Origin: Candidatus Spongiihabitans thiooxidans
GTDB taxonomy: Bacteria; Pseudomonadota; Gammaproteobacteria; Arenicellales; Poriferihabitantaceae
NCBI GenBank assembly: GCA_001543005.1
Contig: LFLB01000031.1
Span: 2,637 to 66,636 of the forward strand
Direction: 5' to 3'
Length of the DNA: 64,000 nucleotides
Numbering within the stretch: position 1 is the stretch's first letter; each line of letters begins with the position of its first letter. A program made the translations under genes and the position numbers. Of the stretch, positions 28,920-41,782 are shown in pieces. The notes under the pieces are model-generated. The model saw only the letters and a program-made list of their open reading frames with translations. It was not told the origin of the DNA and did no database searches.

Positions 28920-29279
28920 ATGCCCAAGCCCACACAAGCCGAACCTATACAAGCCGATCTAAAAATCTCCAGCGACGCGATGAGTAGAATCACCGAGTTG
29001 CTTGCCACCAAGGACAATCCAGACTTGATGCTTCGCGTCTATATCCAGGGTGGCGGTTGTTCTGGTTTTCAGTACGGTTTTCAGTTTGACGAAAATCAGG
29101 AAGAAGATGACATCACCGTAGAACGCGACGGCATCAAAGTGTTAATCGATATGCTCAGTTTGCAGTATCTGAGCGGAGCGGAAATTGATTACAAGGATGA
29201 TCTGATGGGCAGCCGATTTCTGGTAAACAATCCTAATGCCTCAGCCACCTGCGGCTGTGGGTCTTCGTTTTCGATATAG
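28920..29279 (+). CDS. erpA: Iron-sulfur cluster insertion protein ErpA (A-type carrier)
   Basis: RVYIQGGGCSGFQYGFQFDE...VNNPNASATCGCGSSFSI. The start is set at ATG 28920. Confidence 0.9.
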   Translation: MPKPTQAEPIQADLKISSDAMSRITELLATKDNPDLMLRVYIQGGGCSGFQYGFQFDENQEEDDITVERDGIKVLIDMLSLQYLSGAEIDYKDDLMGSRFLVNNPNASATCGCGSSFSI

Positions 29280-29295
29280 ACGCATAACATTCGAC

Positions 29296-29557
29296 TCCAT
29301 GGAAGGGGGAGGTACGACCCCATGGAAGGGGGAGATAGAACTGAGTCTGGAACAGAAGTCGAGAGCGACGCAGGATGCCAAAGCCGACGACTCCAGGGAT
29401 GGGGGAGGTACGACCCCATGGAAGGGGAGATAGAACTGAGTCTGGAACAGAAGTCGAGAGCGACGCAGGATGCCAAAGCCGACGACCCCATGGAAGGGGG
29501 AGATAGAACTGAGTCTGGAACAGAAGTCGAGAGCGACGCAGGATGCCAAAGCCGACG
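29296..29557. repeat. Three tandem copies (96, 95 and ~71 bp) of a repeat unit in the erpA-grpE spacer
   Basis: Copies lie at 29296-29391, 29392-29486 (one G missing from a G-run) and 29487-29557 (lacks the first ~24 bp). The unit ends ...gcaggatgccaaagccgacgac. Confidence 0.95.
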
Positions 29558-29565
29558 GGGAGCAT

Positions 29566-29593
29566 TGACGGCTCTCTTGCGCTTTTGAATTTT
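29566..29593 (+). promoter_or_regulatory. Putative sigma32 (heat-shock) promoter of grpE
   Basis: CTTGCGC-13 nt-CCCCATAT compares with the sigma32 consensus CTTGAAA-N13-15-CCCCATNT. It lies ~50 nt upstream of the first grpE ATG. Confidence 0.55.
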
Positions 29594-29641
29594 ATCCCCA
29601 TATTTCCGCAATAATTTACAACTGTACCTATTAAGTCAATT

Positions 29642-30412
29642 ATGAGTCGAAAGTCAACAAAGTCCAACGATCAACGCTATCAGGAACCGCTTGGAAATAT
29701 CCATAAGAATATCCCTGAAGAACCAAATATCCTTGAACAAACCGCCGATGAGTTGGTTGATGAATCACCGCTTGGTGTTTCTGAGGACGACTGCATGGAT
29801 GCCAAAGCCGACGACCCCAGGGACGGGGGAGGTACGACTCCAAGGAAGGGGGAGGTAGAACTGAGTCTGGAGCAGAAGTCGAGGGCGACGCAGGATGCCA
29901 AAGCCGATGATTCCAGAGAGGATTTGATTGAAAAATTGGTCGCCGCGCACAGCCAGATCGATGAATTAAAAGACGGTTATATTCGGGCTAAAGCTGAAAT
30001 GGAAAATATTCGGCGGCGTAGCCAGAATGAAATGGTATCGGCCCGCAAATACGCAATCGAAGGATTTGCCCAGGAATTACTCGGTGTTGTTGATAGTCTG
30101 GATCAGGCGACCAGGGTTGAGATGGATAAGCCAAACGGAGAAACCGCCATTAATATGAAAGAGAATATGAAACAGGGGCTGGAATTGACCCTGAAGCAGT
30201 TTGATAAAGTAATGGAAAAGTTTGGCGTTATTGCGGTGGAGGCAGAACCCGGGGTAAAGTTTAATCCCGAAGTACATCAGGCGATTAGCGTGATTGCGAG
30301 CGATGAGGTTGAGCCTGAACATATTGTAAACGTGGTGCAAAAAGGTTTTTCCTTAAAAGATAGGTTATTACGTCCAGCGATGGTTGTGATTGCTAAAAGT
30401 CCCGAAAAATAG
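29642..30412 (+). CDS. grpE: Nucleotide exchange factor GrpE
   Basis: The core reads [18 protein letters not shown]...FNPEVHQAI...[17 protein letters not shown]. The start is ambiguous: ATG 29642 has no clear SD, while ATG 29795 is preceded by GAGGA. Confidence 0.9.
29797..29911. repeat. Fourth, diverged copy (plus an 18-bp partial) of the 96-bp erpA-grpE repeat, lying inside the grpE 5' coding region
   Basis: 29816-29911 aligns over 96 bp with 29296-29391 with a few substitutions. In the grpE frame it encodes [32 protein letters not shown]. Confidence 0.9.
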
Positions 30413-36406: not shown

Positions 36407-36577
36407 ATTGACCTATACGGCCACCGACAGTGCCACGGCGCAAGGTGTTTCGGCTTCCCGTGGTCTATCGAGCCATGGCCGGACTGGACGGCCACCGACA
36501 GTGCCACGGCGCAAGGTGTTTCGGCCCAGCACAAGAGGCAAAAATTGAGAACCAAAGCAAATACAACCGCCGCGTAA
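36330..36577 (+). pseudogene. Fragment of a cadherin-like/putative-Ig (He_PIG-like) repeat protein gene, frame-broken
   Basis: It reads SLNPESGFL..SGTPTTPGVTELTYTATDSATAQGVSA, the usual L.P.TG.LSGTPT..G.Y.FTVTATD pattern. A 38-bp stretch (36417-36454) recurs at 36488-36525 in another frame. No plausible full-length gene exists. Confidence 0.4.
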
Positions 36578-36646: not shown

Positions 36647-38209
36647 TCAGTCGTACACCACTCTGAAGCCTATGCTGTCAGAGCGGTGAGTGAGGGGCAG
36701 CAGTCGCCCAAACATGCTGCGCGCTGTGGTTTTGCCGGGTAACAGCCAGTTACCGCCCTGCACCCAGGCGGCGTAGTCGCCTCGTTCGGCGGTTATAGAG
36801 AGGGTCCACTCCGAGACGTTGCCGGCCAGGTCGTACACGCCGTTGGTGGTGCTGTCGTGTACTGCGTCCGCGCACTGGCGCGGCCCCGGTTCGGTCTGAT
36901 CGCCGGTGGCGGCGTTGTTCACCACATAATCACCGCCCCAAGGGTACGGATTGGCATCCGGCCCTGCGGCTAACAGTTGCCACTCTTCAACCAGGGGCAA
37001 TCGTCCGCCGGCCCAGCGGGCAAATGCGTCCGCCGCCCACCAGTTGATTCCGCTTACCGGCAGTTCGGGTCGCTGCAGTTGCTGTTCCCAGTTTTGCGGC
37101 ATGTAGTTTTGCCAGCGTGGTTCGTGTTCGTTGGCAAACAGACCGAGGCGCACCAGTGGATGACGTAAAAATGAGCGGTATTCGCTACGACTGACTTCGC
37201 AACGGCTTACCTCCATACGCCGTGCCCTCTGGGTTTGACTGATGAGACTGCGCGCTTTGCGTTGCCGTGCCGCCGGCAACAGTACCGCAATCCGGGCCAG
37301 CCGTAAGTCCCGTGGTACACCGAGCGGATAGTGGCCAACGGGAATCACCACCGATTTCGGCATCGCGCCCCACGGCAGGGTCGTCGCCGGTGGTTGTTGA
37401 TAGACGCAACGAAAACCCAGATGGTGGCTGCGCGTTTGTGGCTCAATATCAAGCCGGGCAGCGGCCAGTGCATACAGCGGCCGCCCGCGTGCGCGCATCG
37501 CCGGCGCACCGTGCGCCCCTGGCTGCCGTTCCAGAGGGTGTATGCCGCGCTGACCGCGGCTCCACTCCATCACATTGCCGGCCAGATCATGCACGCCTTC
37601 GGGTGTTGCCGTCGTTGGGTGCAGCGCGCAGGGTTTCGCGGCGTTGCGATGAGCGCTTTGGTAGGGCCAGGGGCTGTCATCGAAGGTGTCGCCCCATGGA
37701 TACAAACGCCCCTCACGCCCAACCGCCATCGCTTCCCATTCCTCGGCCCAAGGCAGGCGGCCGCCCGCTGCTGCGCAGTAGGCGACGGCGCCGTTGTAGT
37801 TCACTCCGCTTGCCGGAGACTGTAGCAATCCGGCGATGCGATGGCCGCTGGATGAACTGTACAATGCCTCCGGGTCGGACACCGGTGCACCGTCGCGTTG
37901 TTGCCAGCGTGCGAAACGCTCAAAGTCAAGTTGCCGCACTTCGCAGGTATCAGCCCAGAAGGAATTGATTTGTGTAGTATAAGCCGGTCGGTCCAGACGT
38001 CGCCGTAGCTCAGTGCCGAAATACCCGCGCTCCAGCGCTTCAAACAGAAACTGGTCAAACGCCCGGGCACGGGAGCTGTGCGATGCTTCAAAGCCGAGTT
38101 CCACGGTCACGGTATCGTTGTGCAACGCCCGAGAATCGAACTGGGTCAGTAACAACAGCAACAACACCAATGTGCCAAGACCGAATGCGGCGATGCGGTA
38201 TTGCTTCAT
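36647..38209 (-). CDS. Tandem FGE-sulfatase-fold (SUMF1/EgtB/PvdO family) protein with an N-terminal signal/anchor; the catalytic Cys pair is absent
   Basis: Domain 1 has YCAAAGGRLPWAEEWEAMA, RLYPWGD, HDLAGNVMEWS and HLGFRCVY. Domain 2 has FARWAGGRLPLVEEWQLLA, NPYPWGG, YDLAGNVSEWT and SIGFRVVYD. The start is set at MKQYRIAAFGLGTLVLLLLLL (ATG 38209), forming an ATGA overlap with the upstream stop. Confidence 0.85.
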   Translation of the reverse strand: MKQYRIAAFGLGTLVLLLLLLTQFDSRALHNDTVTVELGFEASHSSRARAFDQFLFEALERGYFGTELRRRLDRPAYTTQINSFWADTCEVRQLDFERFARWQQRDGAPVSDPEALYSSSSGHRIAGLLQSPASGVNYNGAVAYCAAAGGRLPWAEEWEAMAVGREGRLYPWGDTFDDSPWPYQSAHRNAAKPCALHPTTATPEGVHDLAGNVMEWSRGQRGIHPLERQPGAHGAPAMRARGRPLYALAAARLDIEPQTRSHHLGFRCVYQQPPATTLPWGAMPKSVVIPVGHYPLGVPRDLRLARIAVLLPAARQRKARSLISQTQRARRMEVSRCEVSRSEYRSFLRHPLVRLGLFANEHEPRWQNYMPQNWEQQLQRPELPVSGINWWAADAFARWAGGRLPLVEEWQLLAAGPDANPYPWGGDYVVNNAATGDQTEPGPRQCADAVHDSTTNGVYDLAGNVSEWTLSITAERGDYAAWVQGGNWLLPGKTTARSMFGRLLPLTHRSDSIGFRVVYD

Positions 38210-39945
38210 TTTCGCCACGCCGTGGCCAAGCGTCGCACCAGCAACAGGAAGCCGAGCAGGCAAACTATCAATATGGCGTACAACGTTACCAGCCAACCGC
38301 GTGTCCCGAACCCGGCTTCTTGGTACGGTGTCAGCAGCGGGCGACCGTTCAGGCGTACCCGGTTGTCCTCGGCTTGCACCACCAGCCGCCCGTCGGCATC
38401 AATGCTGGCATCAATGAAGCCGATGATAAAGTCATCAAACTTGGGCGCGATGTAGGCCACCGCTCGCCAACGCAACTGGTTGGCACGTTGTTGTTTCGGC
38501 GGCATCAACAGTATTGAGTTCCATTCAAGCGGTAGCGAAAGGCCGCGCCACACGTCGGGATGGGTGTTTAGCTGCAGTAGTGGACGCGCTACCGCAGGCA
38601 GCGACGCGGCATTATGTCGTGCCTGCCCGACCGAGACCTGCTGTAGCCGCCGATTGGGCTCAATGATAAGTGCCGTGTTCGCCTGCTCCTCAAACTCAAG
38701 CGAGATGACTTTGAGTTGCGGTTGGTTGCGCCCATCGGCGGCAGGCGGTTGGATTCCCATAGCCAGGTCTTCGGGAAAATTTTGTGCCAGATTCTGGAAT
38801 ACATCCCAAACCAGCGTGCTCACCAGTGTGCGTGTTTGCGGATCAAGTTCCAGCGGCGCAGTGAATGCACGGCTGAGCAGTTGCTCAAAATTTGCCAGCT
38901 GGGCGCTCGGTGAGGCACCCGCATCCAGGGTTGCTTGCAACTTGCCGATGAAATCAAACAGCACCATTAGCACCCGTTCTACTGTCGGTTCGGTGTCGCC
39001 CCAGTTGAGCGCCTGAGCGCTATCCGGGCGCAGCGACTCCGGCGTGGAAAGCCGAAAACGGATGCGCCCGTCGCCCTCGCCCGCCGGTGCACCGAGCAAC
39101 CCTTGAGACTGCGAGCCGGGACGCGCATTGGGAAAACTGCCGCCCAGAGCGCTACTGCCGAAGTTGGTCGCGTCTGCAAACGAGCCGAAACCGGTCGCGC
39201 CCGGTAACGGACCGGGGACGGCCCCGCCTGGGAATGCACCGAAGCCGGCCGCCGCACCTTCGTCGGGTGCTCCCGGAAAACCCGGCGGCGGCCAGGTTTC
39301 ATCGCCACCGCCACCGCCGTCGCCCTGCGCCAGTGTCGGCAAGGCCGATGCCGCCGCCGAGCCGGTGCCCGCACCACAATCCTGGGCGGCGACAGCGGGC
39401 GGGCACTGGCCAGCCTGGGCCAGATCCAGCCCGCCAGAGAGAAAATGCCAATGCTGCACGGTGATGTCGTGGTCGCGCAAAATTGACATGGCCAGATAGA
39501 ATTGGGCGATGTCATACACGTCGGCGCGCAGACGCCGTTTGCGATCCTGGTCAAAATCGGCAAGCCAAGCGTCCATGCCGTTCGGTTCGCGCAATAACTG
39601 TTCTCGACGCCAGATTGTCCCGCTGTAAAATTCACGCACGAAGCCGCGGTGTAATTCAATAATCGGCAACACGTCGGGGTCGTACTGTTGATCGAGCGGC
39701 GAGTTGCGGTAGTCGTGCAACTGTGCCGGCCTGCTCGCCGCCAGGCTGTTCAGTACCAGCGAGGTGCTGAAGCGGCGGCTCATCATCGTTGCCACTTCTT
39801 CTATCTGCGAAGCGGTACGTTGTTCGTGTTCGCCGCGCGCGGCGATGCTGAGCACGATGACGATAATCAGCATCGCCAGGCCGTTGGCGAGGATATCCAC
39901 TAACGCAGTGCCAGAGAAATCGGGCATTTGCATCCGCCGTTTCAT
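38206..39945 (-). CDS. Hypothetical bitopic envelope protein with an ExbD/TolR-like N-terminal anchor, a Gly/Phe/Pro-rich spacer, a large unknown domain and a C-terminal TM
   Basis: The 579 aa show these parts. The N-terminus is KRRMQMPDFSGTALVDILANGLAMLIIVIVL. Low complexity spans ~aa 180-293 (GFPGAPDEGAAAGFGAFPGG...TGFGSFADATNFGSS). The C-terminal TM is GWLVTLYAILIVCLLGFLLLVRR. ATGA overlaps occur at both ends. Confidence 0.6.
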   Translation of the reverse strand: MKRRMQMPDFSGTALVDILANGLAMLIIVIVLSIAARGEHEQRTASQIEEVATMMSRRFSTSLVLNSLAASRPAQLHDYRNSPLDQQYDPDVLPIIELHRGFVREFYSGTIWRREQLLREPNGMDAWLADFDQDRKRRLRADVYDIAQFYLAMSILRDHDITVQHWHFLSGGLDLAQAGQCPPAVAAQDCGAGTGSAAASALPTLAQGDGGGGGDETWPPPGFPGAPDEGAAAGFGAFPGGAVPGPLPGATGFGSFADATNFGSSALGGSFPNARPGSQSQGLLGAPAGEGDGRIRFRLSTPESLRPDSAQALNWGDTEPTVERVLMVLFDFIGKLQATLDAGASPSAQLANFEQLLSRAFTAPLELDPQTRTLVSTLVWDVFQNLAQNFPEDLAMGIQPPAADGRNQPQLKVISLEFEEQANTALIIEPNRRLQQVSVGQARHNAASLPAVARPLLQLNTHPDVWRGLSLPLEWNSILLMPPKQQRANQLRWRAVAYIAPKFDDFIIGFIDASIDADGRLVVQAEDNRVRLNGRPLLTPYQEAGFGTRGWLVTLYAILIVCLLGFLLLVRRLATAWRK

Positions 39946-40475
39946 GGCGTTTTCTCGACGTAGTTCTGGATGTAGTCGGGGATGTCGTTCAGCGTCACCG
40001 ATTTGAGCAGTTCATTATCGGCGATTACCCAGCCGATGGCTAATACCTGTTGCGGCCACATCTGGCGTAAACACTCGCGCGCTAACGCCATGCTTAGCAC
40101 ACTGCCTTCCAGCATGAAAAACACCAGCTGGTTGCCGTTGTCCTGGTAAACGCGCCGGGCATAGTCAACGAAGGGGCTACCCGCCGCGCACACCTCAGCC
40201 GGGTTGATGCTGATGCCGGTTTCAATGATACGTAACTCGTCAGGAAAGGTGATCACCACGTAACCGCTACCGCCGTCAAGGCGTTCAATGCGGTACAGAC
40301 CGTCTTCGCTGTTGCGCTCCAGCCGTTCGCGTTGTGCCGCATCGGAATATAGGTTGACCACTACCAGAAACACCAACAGCACGCCAAACACGCCGCCGAA
40401 AATGGCCATCATTGGCGCGTTGTTCTCTTCTTGCAAGGCGTCCGCGGCAACGCGCCGCGCCGATGTGCGTCTCAC
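39942..40475 (-). CDS. Hypothetical single-pass membrane protein, ExbD/TolR-like by topology and N-terminal pattern
   Basis: 177 aa. The GTG start is preceded by GAGGAG. The N-terminus is ...EENNAPMMAIFGGVFGVLLVFLVVV, followed by a ~125-aa soluble domain. Similarity to ExbD was judged by eye only. Confidence 0.5.
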   Translation of the reverse strand: MRRTSARRVAADALQEENNAPMMAIFGGVFGVLLVFLVVVNLYSDAAQRERLERNSEDGLYRIERLDGGSGYVVITFPDELRIIETGISINPAEVCAAGSPFVDYARRVYQDNGNQLVFFMLEGSVLSMALARECLRQMWPQQVLAIGWVIADNELLKSVTLNDIPDYIQNYVEKTP

Positions 40476-40650
40476 TTCGGACTCCTCAGATTTTCAAGGC
40501 ACGAGTACGGGCATGAATTCAAGATCAAACTTAAGCATCGCCTATACTCGATGCCACGTTCTACTTCGCACCCCTTAGATTTTAAAGGAACGAGCACGAG
40601 CATGAATTCAAGATCAAACTTCAACATAGTCTATACTCAATGCCAAGTTC
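40474..40650. repeat. Two tandem ~89-bp AT-rich repeats inside the G+C-rich cassette
   Basis: 40474-40562 and 40563-40650 align with ~80% identity by eye. Copy 1 supplies the SD and GTG of the 177-aa gene. Confidence 0.9.
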
Positions 40651-40713
40651 AAAGAATTTATAAACGAGGTGAAAGAATTTATAAACGAGGTGCAGAAATT
40701 TATAAACGAGGTA
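40651..40713. repeat. 21-bp tandem repeat x3 (aaagaatttataaacgaggtg), overlapping the stop codon of the MotA/ExbB-like gene
   Basis: Read directly from the sequence. Confidence 0.95.
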
Positions 40714-41782
40714 AGGCATCCGACCGGGTTTTTTGCAAACGCCGTTCAAGAGTGGCGAGCAAGCGTTCTTCGCTACGTTGCACCAGTGCCAACACCAGCA
40801 TCAGCAGCACGCTCAACGACAGCGCGATTAAGGTAGTGTCAAAGGCGATGCCGAGCGGAGCGATGGCGGCGTCCAGGTCGCTCGACAGGCTGGCCAGCCC
40901 GGCATCCGAGGCGATGATACGGCGGATGCCATCAGCCGCCAGCGAAATACCGAGCACGGTGCCGATGAAACCCAAAATCGGCACGGCCCAACAGATGTAG
41001 CGTGGAATCAACCAAGATTCCTCGTGCCGCCGCCATAACAACTGCATAGACATGTCAAGGTCGGTGGGGTTTGCGCTGAGCACATCCAGGCTGGCGGCGA
41101 AGGGCGAAACTCGCATGCGCGGGTTGGTGCGCCAACCTGTCAGTACCCGGCGCAAGTACCAGCCGTTCCACGATTTGCCGAGCAACAGCAACATACCCCA
41201 GAAAAACAGTAGCATGGTGATCGGCGGAATCACGCCGCGTTCCAGAAAGCGCCGCGTCAGTGATTGCACATCGGCGGCGCCGCGCGCCAGTAGCTCAAGG
41301 CCGAGAATCGTGCCGGCACACAGAATCAGCGCGGTGATTAGCGACGGCAATATGCCCGGGCCGTAGATCAGGCGCGCCAGACGTTCAAGGCTTTGTTCGT
41401 GTTCGCCGGAGTTCACAGTGGCAACCCACAGGTTACAGGCGTGGAGCGCGAGCACGGCGATAAACATTGGCATCATGCGCCCGGCCCAGGCACCGCTGGC
41501 GCCGGCGCTAATCACCTGCCAGGCGGGCACCGCCAGTACCAGCGCCACCGCCACCAGAGCGATTGTGCCCAGCGCCAATAGACAAGTGAACAGTGCGTGG
41601 CGGGTGCCGAGGAAAAACCAGGTAATCACCAGCGCCCCGAGTGCAAGCACCGATGATACTGTGGCCAGCCACACGGGTAGTTCCAGTACCCGTGTCAGAT
41701 TGATGGCGACGAGTGTTAGCAGGATGAAATAAAGAAGCAGCGACAAGCGGGCAGGCCAGTATAAAGTCATGGGCGGTCTCAA
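40700..41782 (-). CDS. MotA/TolQ/ExbB proton-channel family protein with an extended polytopic N-terminal region
   Basis: The C-terminal part WAVPILGFIGTVLGISLAADGI...LDAAIAPLGIAFDTTLIALSLSVLLMLV matches the LG(L/F)xGTVxG ... G(I)xxAxxTTxxGL signature of MotA_ExbB. About six further hydrophobic segments lie N-terminal. Confidence 0.75.
   Translation of the reverse strand: MRPPMTLYWPARLSLLLYFILLTLVAINLTRVLELPVWLATVSSVLALGALVITWFFLGTRHALFTCLLALGTIALVAVALVLAVPAWQVISAGASGAWAGRMMPMFIAVLALHACNLWVATVNSGEHEQSLERLARLIYGPGILPSLITALILCAGTILGLELLARGAADVQSLTRRFLERGVIPPITMLLFFWGMLLLLGKSWNGWYLRRVLTGWRTNPRMRVSPFAASLDVLSANPTDLDMSMQLLWRRHEESWLIPRYICWAVPILGFIGTVLGISLAADGIRRIIASDAGLASLSSDLDAAIAPLGIAFDTTLIALSLSVLLMLVLALVQRSEERLLATLERRLQKTRSDALPRL

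Follow-up and report, generated by a model that had tools for sequence, protein, structure and literature searches.

An ExbD/TolR-like protein of a sponge-symbiont gene cassette carries a disordered leash, a candidate FGE-binding adaptor and a second membrane anchor

Why should a protein that starts like the axle subunit of an ion-driven motor continue into a disordered spacer, a large domain of no matched family and a second membrane anchor? The question is raised by a 64,000-nucleotide stretch of Candidatus Spongiihabitans thiooxidans DNA (the window; GenBank assembly GCA_001543005.1, contig LFLB01000031.1, positions 2,637 to 66,636 of the forward strand). The window carries a four-gene minus-strand unit, the cassette, which encodes a MotA/TolQ/ExbB-like protein, a 177-amino-acid (aa) protein, a 579-aa protein and a double-FGE protein, in this order. 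The third product, P0001 (38206..39945, minus strand), consists of an ExbD/TolR-like unit, a disordered leash, a predicted adaptor domain and a second transmembrane segment (TM). A first-pass annotation, made from the nucleotide letters, had suggested that this protein is a bitopic TonB analogue, i.e., the force-transmitting arm of the cassette, with an FG-type spacer across the periplasm. We found it more likely that the cassette is a MotA/ExbD/ExbD-fusion/FGE variant of the 5:2 motor family than a TonB analogue. We put about an even chance on the reading that the 579-aa protein is one of two different axle subunits of a 5:1:1 ion motor, leashed to an inner-membrane complex of adaptor and FGE protein, and that its leash is wound or tensioned.

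The open reading frame (ORF) was as first annotated: it runs from 39945 to 38206 on the minus strand, encodes 579 aa and contains the N-terminus, the motifs and the C-terminal tail that had been quoted, and nucleotides 39408–39067 correspond to residues 180–293. The start and the stop of the gene each overlap the neighbouring gene by 4 bp (ATGA). When 8000 candidates were scored, 235 proteins matched the 579-aa protein, mostly over near full length, and a profile search gave 160 representatives at 50% clustering. A contig from a second sequencing run (X2) spans 37169–40561 with 24 substitutions and no gap, and five of the six substitutions inside the ORF are synonymous. The ratio of nonsynonymous to synonymous substitution rates (dN/dS) against three relatives was 0.10–0.21 in the folded parts and 0.24–0.48 in the spacer. 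The ORF is real and under purifying selection. A fusion artefact, which the first-pass annotation had named as one way in which it might be wrong, and an assembly artefact are ruled out by the 235 homologues, most of them near full length, by the 160 representatives and by the gap-free second run. The best-matching sequencing run, possibly the origin of the window's DNA, carries the label sponge metagenome, and no RNA data set was among the runs listed as containing the sequence. The five named relatives belong to Candidatus Spongiihabitans or Poriferihabitaceae; distant homologues are annotated only as "hypothetical protein" and labelled Gammaproteobacteria or Chromatiales.

The AlphaFold2 model, computed from 102 sequences, contained a helix (residues 11–69), a confident domain (about 80–193), a disordered stretch (194–290), a helical bundle (320–390), a beta domain (410–540) and a final helix (548–578). 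Disorder and topology prediction, both proposed at first pass, gave a predicted local distance difference test score (pLDDT) of <50 across residues 194–290 and two membrane segments by hydropathy, at about residues 14–34 and 550–570. The C-terminal TM was found in 105 of 107 homologues, and in 81 of these 105 Lys and Arg are commoner after it than before it. By the positive-inside rule, both termini are most likely cytoplasmic and all that lies between them periplasmic. That is, the protein has two anchors and is not bitopic; a periplasmic loop anchored at both ends, as had also been proposed, is supported by the two TMs. The second TM and its basic tail were confirmed by hydropathy, the model and the homologue alignment (residues 548–579, 38209..38304, the tail being placed in the cytoplasm). 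Searches of the 579-aa protein against Pfam, NCBIfam, PADLOC and PDB sequences gave nothing at cut-off, and when four distant members were scanned singly against the family libraries, only the FGE part of one fusion matched.

The N-terminus had been described as an ExbD/TolR-like anchor. The likeness held, but the folded domain behind the anchor had been missed. TM1 (residues 14–34 by hydropathy, 39844..39906) is a transpore-type helix in which D17 (codon 39895–39897) and N21 are the only invariant columns (107/107 homologues, at 17% mean column identity); D17 is in register with Asp23 of the TolR of the same genome and with the equivalent Asp in the vWA-type motor subunits encoded there. A helical stalk (residues 35–75, 39721..39843; conservation 0.53) covers the remainder of the model helix, with low pLDDT at 53–76. 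It leads to the ExbD/TolR-like periplasmic domain (residues 76–193, 39367..39720), which is the best conserved soluble part of the protein (mean conservation 0.55 vs 0.22 in the spacer). In VIA-align, TolR structures took ranks 1 and 2 among 48,161 chains; the N-terminal unit matched TolR 5by4 with Z 6.4 (root-mean-square deviation (rmsd) 3.9, 93 residues aligned) and TolR 2jwk with Z 5.5 (rmsd 2.1, 64 aligned). ExbD 8pek had the highest Foldseek probability among the matches listed (0.63, E 0.66), and ExbD clusters matched in the ESM Atlas, below the naming threshold of that resource. Because these modest fold scores agree with the Asp and with the gene context, the modelled residues 1–193 look like a complete ExbD/TolR-like unit. 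A Cys181–Cys190 loop is confined to closer homologues (Cys in about 31% of 107). The whole protein, with 579 aa and two TMs, departs from the ExbD type, a single-pass protein of about 140 aa.

The disordered spacer (residues 194–292, 39070..39366) had been described as low-complexity sequence with recurring FG and GF motifs. It is indeed disordered and rich in Gly and Pro, but the motif did not hold. Between C190 and R298, four of eight Phe residues stand beside Gly, where the average of 20,000 shuffles was 3.77 (P=0.58); when 102 homologues were pooled, Phe–Gly adjacency was below expectation (191 observed vs 235 expected), and 53 of the 107 spacers in the deep set have no Phe beside Gly. An FG-repeat spacer was therefore rejected, the motif being at chance level by shuffling and not conserved. 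Length and conservation among homologues, a comparison that had been suggested at first pass, varied widely: the spacer is 96–215 residues long among the 102 homologues, and in the deep set the stretch from 169 to 297 is 61–328 residues long with 3% to 42% Gly. At least 20% of spacer residues are acidic in 20/107, and the composition turns acidic in distant members. The spacer is a leash of indifferent sequence and not an FG element.

The C-terminal module (residues 293–545, 38311..39069) combines the helical bundle with the beta domain. Folded alone from 150 sequences, it reached a pLDDT of 92.3 and a predicted template modelling score of 0.88. The structure prediction and Foldseek search envisaged at first pass gave no match for this module in the PDB or BFVD, and the ESM Atlas gave none, a blank that is not proof of a new fold; in VIA-align only 4 of 48,161 chains reached Z 2 (best 2.4), all on the helical part. 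The first reading had seen about 270 aa with no recognised motif, and this stood: a region of about 250 aa has no Pfam or NCBIfam family at cut-offs. TonB_C, OmpA-like and LysM domains had been named as matches that would reassign the cassette to a known system; none of them matched the C-terminal domain in Pfam, and a TonB_C-like fold was not among the fold matches listed. The most conserved residues of the module are N431, P463, G468, W493, G509, F510 and N528.

A candidate partner of this module is encoded by the next gene (36647..38209, minus strand), a 520-aa protein with an N-terminal anchor and two FGE/SUMF1-fold domains (PF03781, E 1e-49, two stretches). Its best solved relative is SUMF2, an inactive FGE paralogue. 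The catalytic-loop position was placed by alignment to human FGE in domain 1 and by motif in domain 2, where residues 487–492 (nucleotides 36734–36751), the predicted docking site, follow a Gly–Gly motif at what we take to be the position of the catalytic cysteine of human FGE. In neither catalytic-loop region was a Cys found (0/93 homologues). Fusions of a 579-aa-type protein to the FGE protein occur in P0125, P0198, P0488, P0489 and L065, some of them possibly near relatives. In three of them, examined more closely, about 10 residues forming a short basic loop connect TM2 with the FGE protein's own TM, indicating that the adaptor and FGE modules are neighbours at the inner membrane, both on its periplasmic face.

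Co-folding with the FGE-fold protein had been proposed at first pass, and residues 293–579 together with the 520-aa protein scored 0.73 (runs 0.73, 0.74, 0.62), compared with 0.00 for the best of three controls. The mark that was passed is reached by 116/157 solved complexes and 2/215 mismatched pairs, and is roughly applicable here, where the alignments were self-made. The runs agreed in at least 73% of contacts, with a partner pLDDT of at least 77. It is unlikely that the predictor merely reproduced a solved complex, since the fold searches brought up nothing similar. The tightest predicted contacts join FGE residues 488–491 and 502–510 to adaptor residues 345–347, 462–464, 493, 512 and 526–527. 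On the FGE side, interface residues exceeded the remainder in conservation (P 0.04), and so did those of the 579-aa protein when the close set was used (P 0.007). The adaptor is thus predicted to bind the second FGE domain at its dead active-site loop; this binding, like the ExbD/TolR fold of the N-terminal unit, is a model prediction.

The ring of the proposed motor would be formed by the first gene product, a MotA/TolQ/ExbB-family channel subunit with about 8 hydrophobic segments (40700..41782, minus strand). PF01618 matched it with E 4e-4, below the Pfam cut-off as a protein and above the cut-off in the genome search. T275, D315, T316 and T317 are at least 90% conserved among 36 sequences, and Thr275 and Thr317 are in register with the pore threonines of TolQ, whose role in ExbB and TolQ is treated in PMC12905483. 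The subunit is far closer to the vWA-type motor of the same genome (E 3e-17) than to its TolQ (E 0.011).

The 177-aa single-TM protein (39942..40475, minus strand) is presumed to be the second axle subunit. Its hhalign match to the N-terminal unit of the 579-aa protein is weak (probability 2.6%, E 0.018, 105 columns) and places position 24 on D17; this position is Ala24 in the window (nucleotides 40404–40406), where ExbD has Asp. Among 37 loci, 19 have Glu there, 17 have Ala and one has Ser, and the Ala and Ser versions (18/37 loci, window included) have no other acidic TM residue. Since the Ala/Ser proteins form one clade of 16 loci with a FastTree support of 1.0, the acidic residue was lost once and the loss inherited since. 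The protein remains well conserved in the Ala clade, and no compensating acidic residue specific to that clade was seen in the membrane segments compared by eye. Motors of the 5:2 type are thought to step via two axle aspartates that swap protonation state, as described in PMC12905483; the loss in this clade suggests a 5:2 motor with one carboxylate.

The four genes are inherited together. Across 42 loci (L034 and L063 represent one and the same stretch of DNA, and several loci are closely related), all four genes stand in the same order in 31, nine are cut by contig ends and two are true exceptions (L030 and L062). In L030, a 901-aa gene with a weak FN3 match (L030:11684-14389) occupies the usual position of the FGE gene. 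L062 has the 579-aa-type gene alone, and its genome, G175, holds the other three at three distant places (contig C1, at about 347, 1120, 1174 and 1960 kb for L080, L076, L078 and L062). Genome G004, of the window's genus, had no match to any cassette gene, apart from one weak FGE hit over a short stretch only. This co-inheritance is observed directly, as are the architecture, its conservation, the fusions and the missing catalytic cysteines.

Among 60 close relatives, 13 had the cassette, and so had 14 of 400 genomes drawn across the class; 13 of these 14 carriers have genomes of 1.5–2.7 Mb. A phylum-level draw gave 0/400. Most of the bacteria that carry it are uncultured, and those with names are sponge symbionts. 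Third-position G+C content was 0.67–0.72 in the cassette and 0.42–0.53 in flanking genes, and a tree of 34 loci (three without a motA gene were excluded) split members of one genus apart and intermixed families. Both results point to horizontal transfer of the cassette.

How would such a cassette work? The 5:1:1 assembly, ion flow, rotation, winding and ligand binding that follow are drawn by analogy. Five MotA-like copies would surround TM1, with Asp17 as the ion-binding site, together with the TM of the 177-aa protein, and the periplasmic parts of both axle proteins would sit above the pore, as in ExbD/TolR. The leash would connect the axle to the separately anchored adaptor domain, which would clamp the second FGE domain at its dead active-site loop and leave the first free for an envelope ligand. 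Ion flow would turn the ring against the axle, and the leash would be wound or tensioned; force would then pass along the inner membrane to the adaptor–FGE complex and the ligand that it holds, and not across the periplasm to an outer-membrane transporter. The arm imagined at first pass survives in part: force from motor to effector is still plausible, but nothing reaches a free outer-membrane-binding end because TM2 ends the C-terminal domain and the predicted partner is anchored in the inner membrane.

We favor this leashed-axle motor because D17 is invariant, TolR and ExbD are the top fold matches and the pore threonines are kept; because gene order is shared by most loci, G175 keeps all four genes although they are scattered and G004 has none of the four; and because the FGE fusions, the co-fold score and the conserved interface agree. 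The nearness of the ring subunit to the vWA-type motor and the precedents for a hetero-axle described in PMC12204202 and PMC11761067 further support it. Several points weigh against it. With the leash covalently joined to a membrane anchor on either side, only so many turns would be possible, and the missing acidic residue in 18/37 partner subunits clashes with the two-aspartate stepping models described in PMC12905483. The N-terminal fold match is modest, its Z of 6.4 being within the range that the tool calls common and its Foldseek E value being 0.66; neither the 579-aa nor the 177-aa protein matched Pfam ExbD (PF02472). The conservation of the interface was not significant in the deep alignment (P 0.10). 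Finally, L030 keeps a whole 579-aa-type protein although the 9.9 kb downstream of it contain no FGE gene.

The closest described system is the TolQ-like motor with paired transpore-helix (TPH)-vWA subunits (Williams-Jones et al. 2025, PMC12204202), in which a TolQ-like ring is described with a heterologous pair of transpore-helix vWA proteins that both bear Asp. The cassette resembles it in having a TolQ-like ring and two different B subunits, with an effector domain borne on the transpore helix and no separate TonB or TolA. In addition, its ring subunit falls into one subfamily with that of the vWA-type motor of this genome, next to which an FGE-domain gene also lies, and TM1 is similar around the Asp. 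Unlike that system, the cassette proteins have no vWA Pfam match, whereas the C5 pair of the genome has one, and the hhalign match of the cassette protein to this pair covers the TM only. The cassette B subunits are instead ExbD/TolR-like, one being extended by the leash, an adaptor of unmatched fold and a second TM, and the second axle has Glu or Ala in place of Asp. In the main text of PMC12204202, FGE has 0 occurrences. We found no published description of the cassette in literature searched at title and abstract level; the supplement of PMC12204202 was outside the search and might list it.

Other motor genes of this kind were noted. A second motor cassette (L071:4161-10786; G000:C5, about 52–59 kb) has a TPR-like gene, a MotA-like gene, two Asp-bearing vWA transpore-helix genes and a PEGA–FGE gene split over three ORFs, and it matches the TPH-vWA family as described in PMC12204202. 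A third MotA-like gene of the subfamily (L072:6605-9350; G000:C3) stands with a single B subunit, which bears Asp and belongs to no Pfam family; a membrane-anchored protein with Ala/Glu/Lys-rich repeats comes next. Another FGE-domain gene lies at G000:C7:252067-252715 (L074), with internal stops in its match.

AglR–AglQ–AglS, of Myxococcus gliding, likewise has one ring gene and two different TolR-like subunits and is predicted to be 5:1:1 (PMC11761067, PMC9389320); AglQ and AglS are both described there as short and with Asp, in contrast to the cassette pair, and no Glt-like genes recur beside the cassette. The FGE protein is like SUMF2, TagR and GldK/PorK in that an FGE fold without the catalytic cysteine pair is used for protein–protein contacts, and unlike them in its tandem domains, its N-terminal hydrophobic anchor without a nearby cysteine and its predicted partner of unmatched fold.

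The strongest alternative reverses the direction of transmission. The FGE protein would detect damage to the envelope or a ligand in the periplasm, and its response would be relayed through adaptor and leash to unplug a MotA/ExbD-type channel, so that the output would be a gated ion flux or a signal and not mechanical work. We consider this possible but rather unlikely. It would fit the presence of no more than one carboxylate in this clade, and no output gene (outer-membrane, peptidoglycan-binding or other) recurs beside the cassette in the loci viewed. The ring subunit also has weak ZorA matches over the shared channel region. Zorya consists of ZorA with a long tail, ZorB with an OmpA-like domain and the effectors ZorC, ZorD and ZorE; in the cassette the likeness to ZorA is confined to about 80 channel residues, PADLOC gave no match for the remaining three proteins, and there is neither a cytoplasmic signalling domain nor a Zorya-type effector. 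The cassette retains D17 and the two pore threonines, as working motors do, which speaks for a motor. TagR, a precedent for the FGE fold as a docking surface, engages PpkA through a loop of its FGE domain in membrane-damage sensing, as described in PMC13713981, and this lends the signalling idea some support.

We judge it improbable that the protein works as TonB or TolA does, crossing the periplasm with a loop of FG-type spacer to pull on an outer-membrane partner. The long, disordered, Gly/Pro-rich spacer, in which TonB and TolA are alike, could in principle reach outward, and a few of its columns recur (Pro239 in 79% of 107), in a region where the alignment is unreliable. However, FG and GF are at chance level and absent from half of the family, and the spacer varies in length and is acidic in distant members. 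TM2 ties the C-terminal domain back to the inner membrane and leaves no free end. TM1 is a transpore helix with the Asp motif and not SHLS; TM2 has no S-x3-H, and any such motif near the C-terminus occurs in 6/107. A search for TonB-dependent receptors gave no match in the window's genome, which is 97% complete, nor in 13 of the 27 remaining carriers; a link to TonB-dependent uptake was rejected, since only 14 of the 28 carriers have a receptor match. In ExbB–ExbD–TonB and TolQ–TolR–TolA, as described in PMC12905483, the axle is homodimeric and the linker separate, whereas the cassette axle would be heterodimeric with the linker fused to it, and the cassette has no SHLS helix, no TonB or TolA C-terminal domain and no outer-membrane partner. 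The genome has its own separate tolQRAB–pal operon, and its only PF03544 match sits there. The TonB analogy of the first-pass annotation is accordingly not upheld.

There is similarly little chance that the motor-derived ring and axle are an energy-independent scaffold whose task is merely to keep a lectin-like FGE complex membrane-bound. A scaffold would allow both the single loss of the second acidic residue, stably inherited since, and the divergence of the ring subunit; D17, N21 and both threonines are nevertheless conserved in a family with low overall identity, and a scaffold would not need them. Very improbable is an FGE-type enzyme cassette (sulfatase activation or EgtB/SenA-like chemistry) with the 579-aa protein as membrane tether, since the PF03781 match and weak NCBIfam matches to EgtB, SenA and PvdO are set against NCBIfam scores that are all far below cut-offs, catalytic loops free of Cys, SUMF2 as best solved relative and a domain 2 loop that is buried by the adaptor in the co-fold model.

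The surroundings of the cassette differ between lineages, and no fifth gene recurred beside it in the loci viewed. Between motA and the 177-aa gene, and outside the system, the window has two copies of a dispersed repeat of about 90–110 bp (40476..40699), with many blastn matches on 8 contigs of the genome and about tenfold contig depth; this gap is longer in the window, L001 and L002 than in other loci, and L001 and L002 have a related copy there. An exact 38-bp direct repeat (36417–36454 and 36488–36525) lies between tsaB and the end of the FGE gene, and at 29190–29660 of the window, between an iron–sulfur insertion gene and grpE, repeated sequence gives repeated peptides in three overlapping ORFs. 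Near the cassette in other loci are ORFs that we take, from their motifs, to be DNA methyltransferase- or restriction-like (L001:1181-2116, L034:5333-8456, L060:87-2795, L068:5213-6544). A flagellar link found no backing, a FliG-sized match being present in 1/28 carriers. Frames of 652–793 aa with a match to the FliG C-terminal domain (E 1e-12 to 1e-19) occur in G087, G175, G298, G404 and G434; they do not adjoin the cassette, and their genomes have no FliG-sized match.

The cassette is of interest for several reasons. A domain of 250 residues is confidently predicted with no solved structural relative, and the co-fold supplies a concrete partner and surface for it. The occurrence of Glu at position 24 in some lineages and of Ala in a whole conserved clade is a ready natural test of whether two carboxylates are needed. 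With four genes only, the cassette is expressible in a laboratory strain, and that small genomes retain it suggests that what it does is of value to host-associated bacteria. We tentatively go one step further and propose a self-contained 5:1:1 motor with one carboxylate, its axle tied covalently to an adaptor of new fold that holds a lectin-like double-FGE head, in which rotation would reel in or cycle an effector anchored in the inner membrane. If this is true, the Mot/Exb/Tol family would gain an additional class of output, one that would have spread among sponge symbionts to serve an envelope task connected with the host.

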